DNA of 64,000 bases from an uncultured Candidatus Saccharibacteria bacterium (GCA_964402895.1 CAYODR010000001.1:53641-117640), one strand, 5' to 3'. Shown: positions 1,521 to 62,446, counted from the stretch's first letter. A program made the numbers and translations. The notes: generated from the sequence alone by a model not told the origin.

Positions 1521-2456
1521 TTATTGATTTGTTTTAATCCAAATATATAAATCTTCTATTGCTTTTACTGCATCACCGGCTGCGATATTGTTTTGGTGAT
1601 ATAGTCCATCAGTACAGTCTCCCGCTGCCCAAATACCTGTTGTGCTTGTACGCTGGGTTTTTGGATCGGTGACTACATGTCCTGATTCTGTGAGCTCTAA
1701 AATATTAGACAAAAAACTTGTATTTGGTATTTGTCCTATTTCTACAAAGATAGCTCCAACTTCTATTTCTTTTTCTTCACCAGTATTTTTGTCTGTATAT
1801 ACCACTCCATTTACAAATATTTCACCTTTAATTTCTTTAATATCTGTATTTTTTAAAATGGTCACATTTTCTAGTTTTTCAACTTCTCTTACTGTGATTT
1901 CATCTGCTCTGAATTTTTCACTTCTGTGTATAAGAGTCACATGTGATGCGTATTGAGAGAGTTGTAGTACTGCTTCAAGTGCGGCATTCCCACCACCAGC
2001 AACAGCTACTGGTTGACCCGAAAAGATTGGACCATCACAGGTTGCGCAATACATGATACCTTTATTATCAAATTCTTTTGCTCCCGGCACGCTGAGCTTG
2101 CGATGTGTTGATCCTGTGGCTATAAGTACAGTCTTGGTTGTGATAGTATTTTGATTACTTAAAAGAATTTGAAATCCACCATCAATCTTTTCTATATTTT
2201 CTACCCTATGCCCAGTACTCATGGTGAGAGTGTGTCCGTCTTTTGTATATTCTTCAGCGTGCTTTTTAAGGTTCTCTGCAAGTGCGGGACCAGAAATGGC
2301 GGGAGTACCGATCCAGTTGAAAATAGTATCAGAAACAGATGATTGTCCACCAATTTCTTCGGCGATTAGTATTGTTTGTAGTCTTTTTCTAGCAGAGTAG
2401 ACTGCGCCGGCGATACCAGCTGGCCCTCCACCAATAATTGCAATGTCATAAATCAT
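1521..2456 (-). CDS. trxB: thioredoxin-disulfide reductase
   Basis: FAD motif IIGGGPAG, redox-active CATCDG, NADPH motif GGGNAA; 311 aa. Confidence 0.9.
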   Translation of the reverse strand: MIYDIAIIGGGPAGIAGAVYSARKRLQTILIAEEIGGQSSVSDTIFNWIGTPAISGPALAENLKKHAEEYTKDGHTLTMSTGHRVENIEKIDGGFQILLSNQNTITTKTVLIATGSTHRKLSVPGAKEFDNKGIMYCATCDGPIFSGQPVAVAGGGNAALEAVLQLSQYASHVTLIHRSEKFRADEITVREVEKLENVTILKNTDIKEIKGEIFVNGVVYTDKNTGEEKEIEVGAIFVEIGQIPNTSFLSNILELTESGHVVTDPKTQRTSTTGIWAAGDCTDGLYHQNNIAAGDAVKAIEDLYIWIKTNQ

Positions 2457-2497
2457 AATTTTATTATAGGTTATTTTGTTTAATAAGAAAAATATTT

Positions 2498-2899
2498 TTA
2501 GTTTTTAAATTTACAGTCAGTGAGTTTGGCTTTGTATATTTTTGCATTTGGGTCTTTAACAAATTTCCCATCAATAAAAGTACCTGTACGAGAATTTATT
2601 TCTTTATAAACTTCTTCCATCACTTCCTTAGGGTCATAACCTAGTTTAGCAATAGCACCAGTCGCAAAAACTATGATATCTGCCCATGCATCAACCATTT
2701 TTTCTTTATCTTCTGGGGTATTGGTTATGATTTCTTCTACATATTTTTGAGAAGCTTCTTGGGCTGTGATACTGTCGTATTTATCAGTACTTTCTAAAAG
2801 CTCTTCTATGATAAATGAAGCTTCTTTTTTATGATTAAATCCTTTTTCTATTAGTCCGCGTTCTTTGTTCCACTCTACAATTCTTGATAAAATATCCAT
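2498..2899 (-). CDS. hypothetical all-alpha protein, possibly MazG-like nucleotide pyrophosphohydrolase
   Basis: 133 aa with acidic EExxE/DxxxD clusters (IIEELLES, DAWADII) reminiscent of the NTP-PPase fold; assignment by resemblance only. Confidence 0.35.
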   Translation of the reverse strand: MDILSRIVEWNKERGLIEKGFNHKKEASFIIEELLESTDKYDSITAQEASQKYVEEIITNTPEDKEKMVDAWADIIVFATGAIAKLGYDPKEVMEEVYKEINSRTGTFIDGKFVKDPNAKIYKAKLTDCKFKN

Positions 2900-2959
2900 A
2901 TAAAATCATTATAACAAAAAACAAAAAAACTACCCATTTACGGGTAGTTTTTTTGTTTC

Positions 2960-4147
2960 TTATTTTTTATTTCTTCTAAGAAATGCTGGAATAGCTCCCC
3001 AGTCTTCTTCATCTTCAATGATTTCTGGCTCAGAAGCAGTAGTGTCTTCTTTTACGGGTTCTATTTTCTTTACAAAAGGTTTAACTTCTGGTGCATTTTC
3101 CTTTTCTTCAGATAATCTATCTTGTTCGTTGCGAGAGTTGGTAAAGATTTGGTTGGCACTTTGTCCGAAGAGATTGTTTTTCTTTGAAAGTTCATTTGGA
3201 AAACCAGTAGCAATGACTGTGATTTTCATTTCACCTTTTTTCATTCTTTCATCTAAGATGGTACCAATGATTACGCGGGCATCTTTATCAATACTTTCCG
3301 TGATTACTTTGGCTGCGTCTTGAAACTCTGTCATTGTCAGATCATCGTTTGATGAGATTGCAAAGAGTACGCCACGAGCACCATTGATAGAAATATCTAG
3401 GAGAGGGGAATTGATAGCTTGAACAGCCGCTTTTTCTGCTCTGTCTTCACCGCTTGAGAATCCTACGCCCATAAGTGCAGTACCCGCATCTGTAAGTACG
3501 CTCTTCATATCAGCAAAGTCCACATTGATGATACCGGGAGATGCTATGAGTTCTGAGATACCTTCAACCGCTTGAAGAAGTACTTCATCACATTTTGCAA
3601 AAGCATCTTTAAATGTTGTGTCTTTTCCAGAGATTGCTAGTAAGCGGTCGTTTGGAATAATAATGATAGCGTCTACTTCTTTTTCAAGTTCTGCAATACC
3701 GCCCTCTGCGAGTCTCATTCTTTGATTGCCCTCAAAGAAGAAAGGTTTGGTTACAACTCCGACAGTAAGGATACCGGCTTCCTTTGCAGCTTTCGCAACA
3801 ACAGGTGCAGCTCCAGTACCAGTACCACCCCCCATACCACAAGCAATAAAAACCATATCAGCACCCTTGATGGCATCTTGGATTTCTGTTTTGGTTTCTT
3901 CGGCAGCGCGCATACCCATGTCAGGATTTCCTCCAGCCCCAAGACCTTTAGTCAAATTTTTACCTAAATGTATTTTTCTATCTGCAAGAGATTTGTGTAG
4001 GTCTTGCACATCTGTATTCATCGCAATGAATTCAACAGTACGAACTTTGTTGCTAATCATGTGATTGATAGCGTTTCCTCCTGAACCACCCACACCGATT
4101 ACCTTGATGCGTGCGGCAGTTTCTATATCTGGGCTTACTTTTGGCAT
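2960..4147 (-). CDS. ftsZ: cell division GTPase FtsZ
   Basis: GVGGSGGNAINHM and tubulin signature GMGGGTGTGAAPVVA. Confidence 0.95.
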   Translation of the reverse strand: MPKVSPDIETAARIKVIGVGGSGGNAINHMISNKVRTVEFIAMNTDVQDLHKSLADRKIHLGKNLTKGLGAGGNPDMGMRAAEETKTEIQDAIKGADMVFIACGMGGGTGTGAAPVVAKAAKEAGILTVGVVTKPFFFEGNQRMRLAEGGIAELEKEVDAIIIIPNDRLLAISGKDTTFKDAFAKCDEVLLQAVEGISELIASPGIINVDFADMKSVLTDAGTALMGVGFSSGEDRAEKAAVQAINSPLLDISINGARGVLFAISSNDDLTMTEFQDAAKVITESIDKDARVIIGTILDERMKKGEMKITVIATGFPNELSKKNNLFGQSANQIFTNSRNEQDRLSEEKENAPEVKPFVKKIEPVKEDTTASEPEIIEDEEDWGAIPAFLRRNKK

Positions 4148-4255
4148 ATTTTTATCAATTATTATCCCTTTCCACGGGGGCTTATTACTATAAACTTAAT
4201 ATTAGCAGAAAAGAGCAAAAGTACAACAACTTTGACAAAATGTTAAGTTGTGTTT

Positions 4256-5434
4256 TTATGGCATCAATTGTTTTAGAAAGTCTTTAATGAAAGACCAAAA
4301 ACCTTCACCTTCGTAGTTGTTTGATGGAGAATTTCTTTTTTTACTACTTTTAAAATTATTTTGTTCGTTATTGATTGCCACAGAATACGCAAGAATGAAT
4401 CTCGGATCTTTGATTGGACCTTTCACACTTGGAATATCTACATGACCTAAGCGAACTGGAATTTTTAAAATATTTTTTGCTGGATTTTCAAGCGCTGGAG
4501 CTAAAGAGCCGCCACCGATAATGATTGCACCGGATGGGAGCAATCCACTTCTACCGATTTTTTTCAAATATCTGTCTATGAGTTCAAAAATATCTGAATA
4601 TCTAGCTTCAACTATTTCATCTATTTTTCTTTTTGGTACTGATTGAAAATTTAATGTTCCGAGTTTTATGCCTTCAGCTTCTTCAGGTGAGATAGTCAGT
4701 CCAAGTGCAATATCTTTTGTGATATCAAGTGAGCCTAAGCTGAGCACATGCGTGATCGTCGGTGTGCCATTTTCATATACTGATATAGATACTGTCTCAG
4801 CTCCAATGTCTATCAAGACGCAACCAAAATTTTTCTGCATGTCTGTAAGGAGTATTCTATGTGCTGCGAGAGGGTTGGCAATAAAACTTAGGACTTTGAT
4901 ATTTGCAGCATCCATGACAGCGAGTGCGTCATCTAAATGTTGTTTGAAGCAAGTAATAAATAAAACTTTGACTTCAAGCTTTAAGCCATAAATACCATCT
5001 GGGCGAGTAGGGAGCTCTTTGCCATCTATTTTAAATACAAGCGGGAAGGCGTGTAGGATGACTTTATTTTTAAGATCTATCTGAGATTCTGCTTCTTGGA
5101 TAGCATTATCAATATCAAGTTTGCTGATGATGCTATCTGCGCGACTTGTGACTGCTCCTCCTTGCGCATAAACACTTTCAATCCCAGTACCATTGATAGT
5201 GATGCTCGCACTTTTTATGCGAGTACCGAGCTCTTTTTCTGCCATTCTGATGGCCTCCATCAGACTTCCAAATACATCTTCTTTGTTTACGATATATCCA
5301 TGCCTTACGCCACGGGTTTTAGAGAGTCCTGTTGCAACAATCTTTGGATGCTGACCATCACTCGCACCAGTAGTCACCACTACTCTTGTAGTGTCGGATC
5401 CGATATCTATGCCAGTGAAGTATTGTTGTTTCAT
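4256..5434 (-). CDS. ftsA: cell division protein FtsA (actin-like ATPase)
   Basis: GIDIGSDTTRVVV phosphate-1 motif and DIGAETVSISV phosphate-2 motif; immediately upstream of ftsZ. Confidence 0.9.
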   Translation of the reverse strand: MKQQYFTGIDIGSDTTRVVVTTGASDGQHPKIVATGLSKTRGVRHGYIVNKEDVFGSLMEAIRMAEKELGTRIKSASITINGTGIESVYAQGGAVTSRADSIISKLDIDNAIQEAESQIDLKNKVILHAFPLVFKIDGKELPTRPDGIYGLKLEVKVLFITCFKQHLDDALAVMDAANIKVLSFIANPLAAHRILLTDMQKNFGCVLIDIGAETVSISVYENGTPTITHVLSLGSLDITKDIALGLTISPEEAEGIKLGTLNFQSVPKRKIDEIVEARYSDIFELIDRYLKKIGRSGLLPSGAIIIGGGSLAPALENPAKNILKIPVRLGHVDIPSVKGPIKDPRFILAYSVAINNEQNNFKSSKKRNSPSNNYEGEGFWSFIKDFLKQLMP

Positions 5435-59672: not shown

Positions 59673-59700
59673 CAAAATTAATAAATAATTTTAATATGAT

Positions 59701-60114
59701 ATGAAAATATATTTTGGTGGATCTATTAGAGGCGGGAGAGATGATAAAGATCTATATCTTGAAATTATAAAACTACTTGAAAAATATGGGAGTGTACTGA
59801 CTGAACATATAGGAGATAAAACATTATCGGCATTAGGAGAAAGTGGCCCATCTGATAAATTTATCTATGAAAGAGATATGGATTGGTTAGAAGAATCTGA
59901 TGTTGTTGTTGCAGAGGTTACTACACCTAGCTTAGGTGTAGGATATGAAATTGGAAAAATAGAATTAAAAAAACCTGTTCTTTGTATATATCGCGAACAA
60001 GAAAATAAAAGACTTTCCGCTATGATTAGTGGGAATGAAAATATTAAAATCAAAAAATATAAAGATATAACAGAATTAAAAGAAATATTAGAAGATTTTT
60101 TTATGAATCTTTAA
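59701..60114 (+). CDS. 2'-deoxynucleoside 5'-phosphate N-hydrolase (DNPH1/Rcl-like; nucleoside 2-deoxyribosyltransferase superfamily)
   Basis: MKIYFGGSIRGGRDD…VLTEH…ERDMDWLEESDVVVAEVTTPSLGVGYEIGK…KPVLCIY…RLSAMI matches the DNPH1 active-site pattern. Confidence 0.7.
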   Translation: MKIYFGGSIRGGRDDKDLYLEIIKLLEKYGSVLTEHIGDKTLSALGESGPSDKFIYERDMDWLEESDVVVAEVTTPSLGVGYEIGKIELKKPVLCIYREQENKRLSAMISGNENIKIKKYKDITELKEILEDFFMNL

Positions 60115-60144
60115 TATTAAATAATAAATTGTTATAATCAAAAC

Positions 60145-60420: not shown

Positions 60421-60490
60421 TCAAGTTGCGAAAAGGTATATTTTGGGGTATATTTTACAGGTACTTTTTTAATTTTTTACTTAGATATTT

Positions 60491-60633
60491 TGCTTGGTTA
60501 ACTCCAGTTGTAGCGTTCTCAATTGAAGGTATGCTAGGTTAATTGATAATATAATAAATACTGCTTGGTATAGATTCAGTTGTAGCGTTCTCAACTGAAG
60601 GTATGCTAGGTTAATTGATAATATAATAAATAC
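60491..60633 (+). repeat. two tandem 71/72-bp units = degenerate tRNA-Phe 5' half + tRNA promoter region
   Basis: Units start tgcttgg at 60491, 60562 and 60634 (the last is the real tRNA). Each carries CAGTTGTAGCGTTCTCAA(t/c)TGAAGG, resembling the tRNA D-arm and anticodon arm, plus the identical 32-nt tatgctaggttaattgataatataataaatac. Confidence 0.7.
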
Positions 60634-60634
60634 T

Positions 60635-60707
60635 GCTTGGATAGCTCAGTTGGTAGAGCGCTCCCCTGAAGAGGGATAGGTCCCCGGTTCGAGCCCGGGT
60701 CCAAGCA
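60635..60707 (+). tRNA. tRNA-Phe (anticodon GAA)
   Basis: Manual fold: acceptor GCTTGGA/TCCAAGC, D-arm GCTC-AGTTGGTA-GAGC, anticodon loop CT-GAA-GA, T-arm CCCGG-TTCGAGC-CCGGG, discriminator A; terminator aaagacactt…aagtgtcttt+T downstream. Confidence 0.9.
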
Positions 60708-60786
60708 CTAGAATGAACAAAAGACACTTATTTCAAAGTGTCTTTTGTTTTGATTTTATAAAAAATGTGATTATATCTCCGATCTT

Positions 60787-60880
60787 ATCAATACTCACAG
60801 AAGGAAACACAGATTACGAGAACTCCATTAATACCACAGCAGGAAATCGTTTTACGATTTCCTGCTTATTTTTTTGATAC
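60787..60880 (+). ncRNA. candidate small RNA between two terminators
   Basis: Promoter-like TTGATT-16-TATATC at ~60750-60785; ~95-nt transcript with no ORF; ends in terminator agcaggaaatcg-tttta-cgatttcctgct+T9. Confidence 0.3.
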
Positions 60881-60938: not shown

Positions 60939-61145
60939 ATGGAGGACAAAATTATCTTGGTTTATCTAGGTGTAGCTATAACCCTAGGAGTAACACTCTT
61001 TTATGGTGCAGTACCTGAGGAAAGTATTAAAACTTCTCTCCTTGTTATGTATTTGAGTTCTGGCGCTTGTGTAATATATTTTGCGGGCAAAATTATCCAG
61101 CTAATCAAAAATAGAAAGACTGAGAAAATCCGAAGGCGAAGCTGA
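60939..61145 (+). CDS. small membrane protein (68 aa, 2 TM), hypothetical
   Basis: Two hydrophobic helices; followed by two hairpin terminators (61150-61215), the second bidirectional. Confidence 0.4.
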   Translation: MEDKIILVYLGVAITLGVTLFYGAVPEESIKTSLLVMYLSSGACVIYFAGKIIQLIKNRKTEKIRRRS

Positions 61146-61219
61146 ACCAAAGAATTAAAAACAACCCGAATTATCGGGGTGTTTTATTTTAAATTAAAAA
61201 GAGGGCATAACCCTCTTTT

Positions 61220-61753
61220 TTATATAGATTTGATTTTGAGTACAGCCTTACGCTTCTTATCTAGCTTTGGAAGCTTTATAAGCAGCATTCCATGTCTTTC
61301 TATTGCTTCTGCGTTATCTATATCAACTTCTTCTGGTAAGTCTATTGTACGCTCAAATTTGCCCCAATAAAGCTCCTTTATAAAATAAGAATCCATTGAG
61401 ATTGTTTTATTTGGTTCTCTTTTTCCAGAGAGAGTAATAGAGTCACGAGTAGTATTGATAGATAGGTGCTCTGGAGAGACACCAGCAATCAGTGTCTGTA
61501 CTATTATCTCATCACGAGTCTCGTACACATCAACAGAAAGCTCTCCAACTTCATCTGCTTCAAGTAGTGTAGAAACTTCAACTTCTTCAGTTTCAATTTC
61601 TTCATCTTCATAAGAAAGAGATATTTCTCTACTAGGAAGTGGTTCACGGTTTTTTAATTTAGAAGAATGATCGTCTTCTTCATAAAATTCATCTTCAGAA
61701 TCACTAAACCTTAAGTTGCCAGTGAGTCTTTCAAAAAAAGATCTTTTTTTCAT
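61220..61753 (-). CDS. Hsp20/alpha-crystallin family small heat-shock protein
   Basis: Alpha-crystallin domain (LSVDVYETRDEIIVQTLIAGV…ITLSGKRE…GKFERTIDLPEEVD…GMLLIKLPK). Confidence 0.8.
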   Translation of the reverse strand: MKKRSFFERLTGNLRFSDSEDEFYEEDDHSSKLKNREPLPSREISLSYEDEEIETEEVEVSTLLEADEVGELSVDVYETRDEIIVQTLIAGVSPEHLSINTTRDSITLSGKREPNKTISMDSYFIKELYWGKFERTIDLPEEVDIDNAEAIERHGMLLIKLPKLDKKRKAVLKIKSI

Positions 61754-61759
61754 AATTCT

Positions 61760-62446
61760 TTATAGAGTTGCCTCCTTAGGAATGCGTCTGAGTTTTTCAA
61801 GCATTACATGACTAATAATAGCAGCGATCCACAAGTATCCATAAATTTGTAGCGCACTTGCAGTATCATCCTTAAGTATAAATAAATTAAAAGTTGCATG
61901 CAAGGCTGTAGCACCTATTAAGCCAAACAAAATAGAACTCTTCCTACTATTTACACTCGAGATACCAATAATAATTCCAATAAAAGCACTTGAGATAGTA
62001 TGAAGCAGTGTCGCACCAAAGAATCTCATACTTCCAGTCAAAAGACTTGCTGTGATATCTGATACAACAGTTGGTTGAAGTACATAAAATACATTTTCAA
62101 GTGCCGCAAAACCAAGAGCAACAGCTATTAAATATATAGCCGAATCAATAGGTTCATCATTATGAATACTTTTATAAGCAACAATATAAAAAACTAAAAA
62201 TTTTATAAACTCTTCTATAAAAGACCAAACGACTATTTTTGTTTCCTCTGAAGAAAATAGGGGATTAAATAAATTTTGCAAAAAAGCTGCAAAATAAATA
62301 CTAAGACCACCAAAAATAAAACATATAGCAATAAGTCTAAATGGTTCTGGATTATCCTTATCTGTTCTAAGCCAAAATAATAACCAAAAAATAGCAGGAG
62401 CAACTCCAAGTAGTAGCGCTATGCTTGTCGGACTTAATTCGGCCAT
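61760..62446 (-). CDS. PrsW-family intramembrane protease
   Basis: Multi-TM protein with EEFIK (EExxK) and HATFN motifs. Confidence 0.6.
   Translation of the reverse strand: MAELSPTSIALLLGVAPAIFWLLFWLRTDKDNPEPFRLIAICFIFGGLSIYFAAFLQNLFNPLFSSEETKIVVWSFIEEFIKFLVFYIVAYKSIHNDEPIDSAIYLIAVALGFAALENVFYVLQPTVVSDITASLLTGSMRFFGATLLHTISSAFIGIIIGISSVNSRKSSILFGLIGATALHATFNLFILKDDTASALQIYGYLWIAAIISHVMLEKLRRIPKEATL

Follow-up and report, generated by a model that had tools for sequence, protein, structure and literature searches.

Plastid genomes of plants can carry, in the trnL-F spacer, tandem arrays of one to seven partial copies of trnF(GAA), each of 32-73 bp, lying 5' of the functional gene (PMC3786074). 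Such arrays are known in Brassicaceae, Solanaceae, Asteraceae, Annonaceae and Juncaceae (PMC3786074, and Koch et al. 2005 to the extent that it is cited there). The anticodon and D domains are the best conserved parts of these copies, and sigma70-type -35 and -10 motifs are interleaved with them in varying number; the arrays have lineage-specific origins, turn over in copy number and sequence, and are monophyletic within plant clades (PMC3786074). Our search of the literature for a bacterial counterpart of these pseudogene arrays found no description of one.

In rrn operons, the promoters P1 and P2 are arranged in tandem and feed a single stable-RNA operon in series. Transfer RNA genes are also classic attachment sites, and the att copies seen at them are normally 3' parts of the gene that flank kilobases of cargo and are accompanied by an integrase. 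The textbook bacterial example of a tandem repeat with tRNA fragments is the E. coli tyrT operon, whose repeat units are 178 bp long and include the last 19 nt (3' terminus) of tRNA-Tyr. One of these units gives rise to a processed RNA (rtT/rttR RNA), according to the account in PMC3318445, which cites Bosl and Kersten 1991.

The window analysed here, by which we mean the whole 64-kb stretch of bacterial DNA, contains a 72-nt tandem array at 60491-60633 that runs on into the tRNA-Phe gene at 60635. We interpret it as a local tandem duplication that became an array of pseudogenes, not as the scar of a mobile element, and assign this interpretation a probability of about 0.72.

Anatomy of the array upstream of tRNA-Phe

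Tandem Repeats Finder delimits the array at 60491-60652 (period 72, 2.3 copies, 90% matches, score 266) and reports no other with a score of at least 60 in the whole window. The region is composed of the following features.

60426-60454, plus strand: predicted ancestral tRNA-Phe promoter, TTGCGA-17 nt-TATATT, right after the p91 stop codon (consensus scan)
60469-60490, plus strand: AT-rich leader of about 22 nt, found in the window but not in contigs L084 and L085; an indel before unit 1 (alignment)
60491-60561, plus strand: unit 1 (Tandem Repeats Finder, alignment), 72.5% identical to tRNA positions -1 to 38
60491-60529: pseudo 5' half of unit 1, with the pseudo anticodon loop TTGAAG at 60523-60528
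60530-60561: spacer of unit 1, with GATAAT at 60545-60550 and TATAAT at 60550-60555
60562-60633, plus strand: unit 2, 93% identical to unit 1 and 75.6% to tRNA positions -1 to 38
60562-60601: pseudo 5' half of unit 2, with CTGAAG at 60595-60600
60602-60633: spacer of unit 2; GATAAT occupies 60617-60622 and TATAAT 60622-60627, which leaves 7 nt to G1 of the intact gene
60635-60708, plus strand: tRNA-Phe(GAA), intact, with no encoded CCA (ARAGORN; Rfam tRNA, 66.2 bits)
60715-60750, plus strand: intrinsic terminator closing the tRNA-Phe transcription unit, a hairpin with a 15-bp stem and a T-run after it (terminator scan)

The two units, of 71 and 72 nt, are joined head-to-tail with 0 nt between them and lie in register with the gene, whose position at 60635 is given by ARAGORN and Rfam and agrees with the alignment. 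An earlier note on this DNA, which had described two tandem pseudo-copies of about 72 bp upstream of tRNA-Phe, in register with the real tRNA, was correct on both points. Alignment shows TGCTTGG at the start of each unit, as in tRNA-Phe, together with remnants of the acceptor 5' strand, the D-arm and the anticodon loop; over the 5' half of the tRNA (to nt 38), the 5' part of the units is 66-76% identical to the gene. When tRNA nt 1-38 were aligned semi-globally to the 150 nt upstream, the score reached z = 7.9 against shuffles. A repeat search also found a direct repeat of 64 nt at 98% identity (60505-60568 versus 60577-60640), which spans the unit boundary, so that the opening bases of the following copy, or of the real gene, are included along with the spacer.

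Three details of the earlier description need amendment. The anticodon-loop sequence CTGAAG is indeed kept in unit 2, but unit 1 has TTGAAG; the D-loop is damaged, but by the loss of just one G of the GG (AGTTGGTAG to AGTTGTAG); and the promoter-like segment is shared by both units, but is 33-34 nt long, not 32. This segment, the non-tRNA spacer of each unit, is AT-rich (GTATGCTAGGTTAATTGATAATATAATAAATAC(T)), is identical in units 1 and 2, and stands before the pseudo and the real copies of tRNA-Phe alike. Comparison with the tRNA 3' half revealed no alignable similarity beyond TAGGT, and the spacer was accordingly rejected as a decayed 3' half.

ARAGORN calls neither unit a tRNA, nor does Rfam, even at E<=1. 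Lacking a 3' half and an anticodon stem able to fold, and with a deletion in the D-loop, the pseudo 5' halves cannot give rise to a tRNA. Since short reads underlie the assembly, two is the minimum number of copies. The repeat is no artefact of assembly: Logan contigs built independently from SRR16797981 stop exactly inside it, at the shared 64-mer, as contigs from a de Bruijn graph are expected to do at a genuine repeat.

The gene at 60635 is the sole tRNA-Phe gene found in the window or at any relative's locus, and a hairpin equivalent to its terminator follows tRNA-Phe in L084, L004, L007, L086 and L088. The tRNA (60635-60708) carries G at position 37, and its anticodon stem is mismatched at the top (C27-U43). 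Its CCA is unencoded in the window (…AAGCACTAG) and encoded in L084 (…AAGCACCAC), the preceding 74 nt being identical. Two other candidates for the region were tried and rejected: a structured RNA or riboswitch in the units, for which there was no Rfam match and the folds were not conserved, and a group I intron, given that tRNA-Phe is intact and no intron match was found. The group I introns of Patescibacteria tRNA genes lie at position 35/36 of tRNA-Asn or tRNA-Asp and split the gene (bioRxiv 10.1101/2025.07.03.662931).

The locus in sister and outgroup genomes

The host is a Paceibacteria (CPR) bacterium; among species-representative genomes, its LepA finds its best matches in Paceibacteria/Minisyncoccia (CPR) MAGs, at no more than 75% identity. 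The neighbours of the site, Obg, GatB, LepA, Grx, Hsp20, PrsW and ValRS, are housekeeping genes. A recurrent order, seen over about 80 loci, runs LepA, a small protein, Grx, tRNA-Arg(CCT), a p91 homologue, tRNA-Phe(GAA), Hsp20 and PrsW, the last two on the reverse strand. The protein p91, a membrane protein of 91 aa, is encoded inside this conserved block, and its gene adjoins tRNA-Phe across Paceibacteria.

Two sister strains, L084 and L085, were reached among Logan contigs through the p91 homologue, at 92% identity. L084 comes from a different sample, is unbroken from LepA to ValRS, and was assembled straight through two diverged units of 71-72 nt (Tandem Repeats Finder period 72, 2.2 copies, 87%). 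TTGCTA-17-TATATT lies ahead of these units, the first of which, unit A, begins 14 nt past the -10 hexamer, exactly the point at which the tRNA starts in L004. L085, from a third sample, has two units at the same place and is a mosaic, its first unit being of the L084 type and its second of the window type. The outgroups L086 and L088, reached via Hsp20 homologues at 74% and 70% identity, have no units, and there the p91 homologue stands just upstream of tRNA-Phe; the nearest GTDB species genomes, L004 and L007, have no units either. The tRNA-Phe sequence is 100% identical in the window, L084, L086 and L088. Because the units occur in the window, L084 and L085 and not in L086, L088, L004 or L007, the array was born after the split from L086 and L088 and before that between the window and L084. 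On the sequence comparison, it has been inherited vertically since the common ancestor of the window and L084, between which LepA has 90% nucleotide identity and third-codon identity is 70-85%. Scans of JGI metagenomes for the unit core GTTGTAGCGTTSTCAAHTGAAGGTAT and the exact tRNA-Phe gave 0 matches, the lineage being absent from that set.

The window units are 75% and 83% identical to those of L084, much as third-codon positions are (70-85%), and as a whole they appear to evolve at roughly the neutral rate. The intergenic stretch from the p91 stop to GGTACTTTT (60421-60468), with the predicted ancestral promoter inside, is 88% identical to L084. The units have evolved in concert: paralogues in the same genome are 93% (window) and 87.5% (L084) identical, whereas positional orthologues reach 74% and 83%. 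That paralogues are closer than orthologues, together with the mosaic of L085, points to unequal exchange, gene conversion or separate re-duplication in each lineage.

The DNPH1-like gene upstream (Pfam Nuc_deoxyrib_tr, the nucleoside 2-deoxyribosyltransferase family) has a different distribution. In L084, tRNA-Arg abuts p91, so the gene is absent there, and it is absent from L085 as well. Relative to these two contigs, the gene and its flanks form a clean insertion of 471 nt (59674-60144), from the 3' end of tRNA-Arg to the ATG of p91, at which no flanking direct repeats were found. Such a gene is present at no relative's locus among the roughly 80 compared; the family as such abounds in Patescibacteria, where thousands of homologues have 60-78% identity. 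Between the DNPH1-like gene and the units stands p91, and the insertion is an event independent of the units. The inserted DNA also supplies a promoter-like TTAATA-16-TATAAT for p91.

Further variation was observed on either side of the tRNA. Past the tRNA-Phe terminator, 117 nt of the window (60751-60867), with a second terminator at 60838-60866, are missing from L084. Contig L003 (1-512; SRR8925719), from a different sample, is 99.7% identical to the window from 60868 on and wholly unrelated upstream; since the similarity stops there, 60868 is a strain-level breakpoint or L003 is chimeric. A membrane ORF of 68 aa between tRNA-Phe and Hsp20 (60939-61145; L084:4097-4303) occurs in no GTDB relative and has about 55% nucleotide identity between the window and L084, where neighbouring genes have 86-98%; this ORF would be either fast-evolving or replaced. 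PrsW (61760-62446; L084:4898-5584) is 98.4% identical between the two, with 96% at third-codon positions, while LepA and p91 are 86-90% identical, with 70-73% at third-codon positions. These values hint at recent recombination between the window and L084 lineages to the right of the tRNA. Rfam also gives a weak match to the gammaproteobacterial rimP leader at 61135-61221, where two terminator hairpins stand back to back between p68 and Hsp20; at 31 bits, below the gathering score of 47, the resemblance is in all likelihood fortuitous. In L086 (1700-3700) and L088 (4540-7135), p91-tRNA-Phe adjoins FtsZ and thioredoxin reductase, not LepA-Grx-tRNA-Arg; these two genes lie at 1521-5434 in the window, 56 kb off, which implies a rearrangement breakpoint just upstream of p91.

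Candidate promoters and the probable origin of the array

In every outgroup, the tRNA-Phe promoter has the form TTGCnn-17-TATAnn and ends 9-25 nt before G1. The counterparts align in register, with TTGCTG-17-TATAAC in L004, TTGCTT-17-TATAAA in L007, TTGCTA-17-TATATT in L084 and TTGCAG/TTGCTA-17-TATAAA in L086/L088 (25 and 9 nt before the tRNA, respectively), and all of them stand directly before tRNA-Phe or the first unit. By this alignment, 60426-60454 would be the ancestral tRNA-Phe promoter, now placed upstream of unit 1.

Each spacer contains hexamers of the -10 type, namely GATAAT, TATAAT and a TG-preceded TAATAT, at 7-12 nt from the next G1; 16 nt ahead of GATAAT, in the -35 position, is the pseudo anticodon loop, (T/C)TGAAG. 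A promoter scan flags TTGAAG-16-GATAAT at 60523-60550, in unit 1. Over the region, the scan did no better than shuffles (12 versus 10.5 sites), so that motif matches alone prove nothing; the first position of the -35-like hexamer varies across units (T, C, C, A), indicating that a canonical -35 is not under visible selection. In global alignments against dinucleotide shuffles, the AT-rich spacer was not significantly similar to six ancestral-type promoters (z 0.2-2.9) or to the leader before unit 1 (z 0.2-1.6), and we therefore do not claim that it copies the old promoter. We rate the chance that the spacers act as extra promoters somewhat short of even.

Local tandem duplication, by which the promoter-proximal part of the gene is multiplied, was an option that the earlier note had also raised, and it fits all the evidence. 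The duplicated segment would have extended from the promoter-proximal leader of tRNA-Phe to about nt 38, in the anticodon loop; it should then measure about 72-78 nt, in agreement with the period. Slippage during replication or unequal recombination may have produced the copies, after which the units would have been homogenised and turned over, as with any short tandem repeat. Given the -10 hexamers of the spacers and the pseudo anticodon loop at the -35 position, tRNA-Phe would probably be fed by up to three tandem promoters, the one at 60426-60454 and one per unit. Transcripts from the upstream promoters would then carry the pseudo-halves as a 5' leader, to be trimmed by RNase P. If the spacers do act as promoters, the array would give this streamlined CPR genome a simple means of increasing or buffering tRNA-Phe expression.

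Several other explanations must be weighed against local duplication. The first, to which we give a low probability, holds that the units are decayed copies of the whole 73-74-nt tRNA-Phe gene, laid end to end, whose 3' halves were mutated by AT pressure or selection into promoter-like sequence. It would account for a period of 71-73 nt, the length of the tRNA, in four loci (the window, L084, L056 and L082), and for TAGGT lying roughly where the variable loop AGGTC would fall, and plastid trnF pseudo-copies reach 73 bp too (PMC3786074), but it does not account for a 5' part that is 66-76% identical beside a 3' part that is unalignable, an asymmetry that uniform decay would not give. The unit is also 2-3 nt shorter than the gene, and the period in L027 is 56 nt.

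Considerably less probable is a function of the units in their own right, as RNA or DNA, for which they would be kept: a structured 5' leader that controls the maturation of tRNA-Phe, a decoy for an anticodon nuclease, or a regulator's operator (CAGTTG-N9-CAACTG). Overall divergence near neutral, the impossibility of an anticodon stem and the lack of any Rfam family match speak against it. The long hairpin of unit 2, with z = -4.1, would favour such a role, but it is not conserved in unit 1 (z = -1.1) or in unit A of L084 (z = -0.4), where the pairings differ, and substitutions break its pairs without compensating for them; conserved secondary structure with covariation was not found in the units. 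What a function could explain is the core AGTTGTAGCGTT.TCAA.TGAAGGTAT, which is invariant in 6/6 units seen. A second stretch, TGATA[AG]TATAATAA, is unchanged across the four complete units that the window and L084 contain.

The explanation foremost in the earlier note, a mobile-element footprint at the tRNA with a decayed islet between tRNA-Arg and tRNA-Phe, has a very small probability and is close to refuted. It would make the units scars of one or two tRNA-Phe-integrating elements that supplied a 5' half and promoter and whose bodies have since been deleted. The standing of tRNA genes as attachment sites, the strain-variable DNA nearby (the DNPH1-like insertion, the window-specific 117 nt and the synteny break at 60868 against L003) and the att-like 3' copies downstream of tRNAs in relatives would all suit it. 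The copies here, however, are 5' halves, head-to-tail and in register, with no element DNA between them and with the same spacer before pseudo and real copies. Neither the neighbours nor 20 mid-size ORFs of the window, which belong to housekeeping Pfam families or to none, yielded an integrase, and no 3' att copy of tRNA-Phe was found downstream (score 11). Scans of viral contigs for the unit core GTTGTAGCGTTSTCAAHTGAAGGTAT and the exact tRNA-Phe gave 0 matches. The supposed cargo is unlinked, as L084 and L085 have both units without the DNPH1-like gene, and this comes near to what the note itself had said would indicate a stable promoter duplication, namely the same repeats in relatives with no linked variable cargo. 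Of the two genes that it had regarded as non-core in the interval, the DNPH1-like gene is variable, but p91 is conserved beside tRNA-Phe across Paceibacteria.

An assembly artefact, in the form of a mis-joined or artificially duplicated repeat, has a negligible probability: short-read assemblies do mishandle repeats and Logan contigs do break here, but the units differ at diagnostic positions, two units are present in each of the two other samples, and the breaks fall exactly at the shared 64-mer, as for a true repeat. For annotation, the locus shows that a partial tRNA copy beside a tRNA gene does not suffice to call a genomic island, and a cheap comparison of sister genomes here separates a local repeat from an integration scar.

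Partial tRNA copies in relatives and in known systems

Across the window and its relatives, the semi-global test found significant upstream copies of nt 1-38 at 6/36 tRNA-Phe genes, compared with 0/82 other tRNAs. The z values were 7.9 in the window, 7.0 in L056, 6.1 in L084, 4.6 in L027, 3.4 in L009 and 3.3 in L044; a further copy in L082 was marginal (z = 2.55). Tandem Repeats Finder detected no array in L027, L056 or L082, each of which has a single diverged pseudo-copy. In L056 (period 72), 34 nt separate the end of the pseudo-half from the gene, against 33 nt in the window and L084, and the L027 copy stops after the D-loop TTGGTA, 18 nt before TACAAT. The copies of L009 and L044 differ in look and may belong to a structured element adjacent to tRNAs.

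One conceivable reason for arrays to favour tRNA-Phe(GAA), though an unlikely one, is that the anticodon loop (YTGAAR), and once the D-loop (TTGGTA), offers a ready-made -35 box. A duplication ending at such a -35-like loop, with a 33-34-nt leader, would create a correctly spaced promoter and might be favoured or at least tolerated. If true, this capture of a -35 box would explain separate arrays at tRNA-Phe in several Paceibacteria lineages and in at least five plant-plastid families. Within this clade, 5' pseudo-copies seem confined to tRNA-Phe, a small puzzle that lends itself to a genome-wide test.

The structured element, 110-170 nt long, was observed directly downstream of tRNA-Gly(CCC), tRNA-Arg(CCT) or tRNA-Phe in about 15 of the 80 relatives' loci (Paceibacteria). 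A partial list of its positions follows.

L055:8405-8700, structured element
L057:8517-8669, structured element
L040:5409-5579, structured element
L082:9258-9370, structured element
L011:8411-8590, structured element
L034:6674-6874, structured element
L077:12185-12345, structured element
L024:3476-3600, structured element
L024:4065-4244, structured element

Its outer stem repeats both acceptor-stem strands of the neighbouring tRNA, and it closes with 19-30 nt copied exactly from the tRNA 3' end. Between them lie a 9-bp hairpin, whose CUGC loop caps a stem that covaries between species, and an extended version of the neighbour's T-stem (GGGAAUCGAA...GAUUCCC) that encloses two hairpins; RNAfold z values range from -4.3 to -6.4 against shuffles. 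A covariance model of the 5' module gave 17 matches (E<0.01) in 1 Mb, all on the tRNA strand and, for the positions compared with tRNA calls (all but those in L067, L050 and L052), just downstream of a tRNA, with none in the window; the element is absent from the window and its close relatives. No Rfam family matched it, and no description of it was found in the literature. Its identification as a tmRNA was rejected, because several copies occur in one genome and each copy matches its own tRNA, because G3:U70 is missing, and because the score to tmRNA_permuted reaches just 14.5 bits.

At two loci (L024:3880-4250 and L044:9270-9640), a tRNA-Phe gene with its own promoter and terminator is bracketed by partial copies. 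About 100 nt upstream lie a copy of the acceptor 5' strand and a conserved hairpin, and about 150 nt downstream a copy of the T-arm and acceptor 3' strand, in which CCA is encoded in both loci; in the gene proper, CCA is absent from L024 and encoded in L044. It looks as if these tRNA-Phe genes were set inside a tRNA-like shell.

Set beside the described systems, the array shares with att sites a partial tRNA copy near an intact gene, but its copies are not 3' parts, flank no cargo and come with no integrase. Several promoters feeding one stable-RNA gene, as at rrn P1/P2, is the way in which the array is proposed, from motifs, to work; the rrn promoters, in contrast, are not repeats of each other and contain no gene fragments. 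The tyrT repeats are likewise a tandem repeat that adjoins a tRNA gene, arose by local duplication and carries a tRNA fragment in each unit, yet they lie downstream and involve the 3' end, whereas the units described here lie upstream and combine a 5' half with promoter-like DNA.

The plastid trnF arrays resemble it most. The tRNA species is the same; the partial copies are head-to-tail, right 5' of the gene, in units no longer than the gene, and are non-functional as tRNA in the window; sigma70-type promoter motifs accompany the units, as motif matches; and the window array is lineage-specific, with turnover and concerted evolution of its units. The differences are that the host here is a free-living-type bacterial (CPR) chromosome and not an organelle, that the acceptor 5' strand, rarely kept in Solanaceae, is kept in the window units, and that two units are seen, each with the same complete AT-rich spacer. 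With the plastid trnF(GAA) pseudogene arrays as its closest precedent, the array would seem to be their counterpart in a bacterium.
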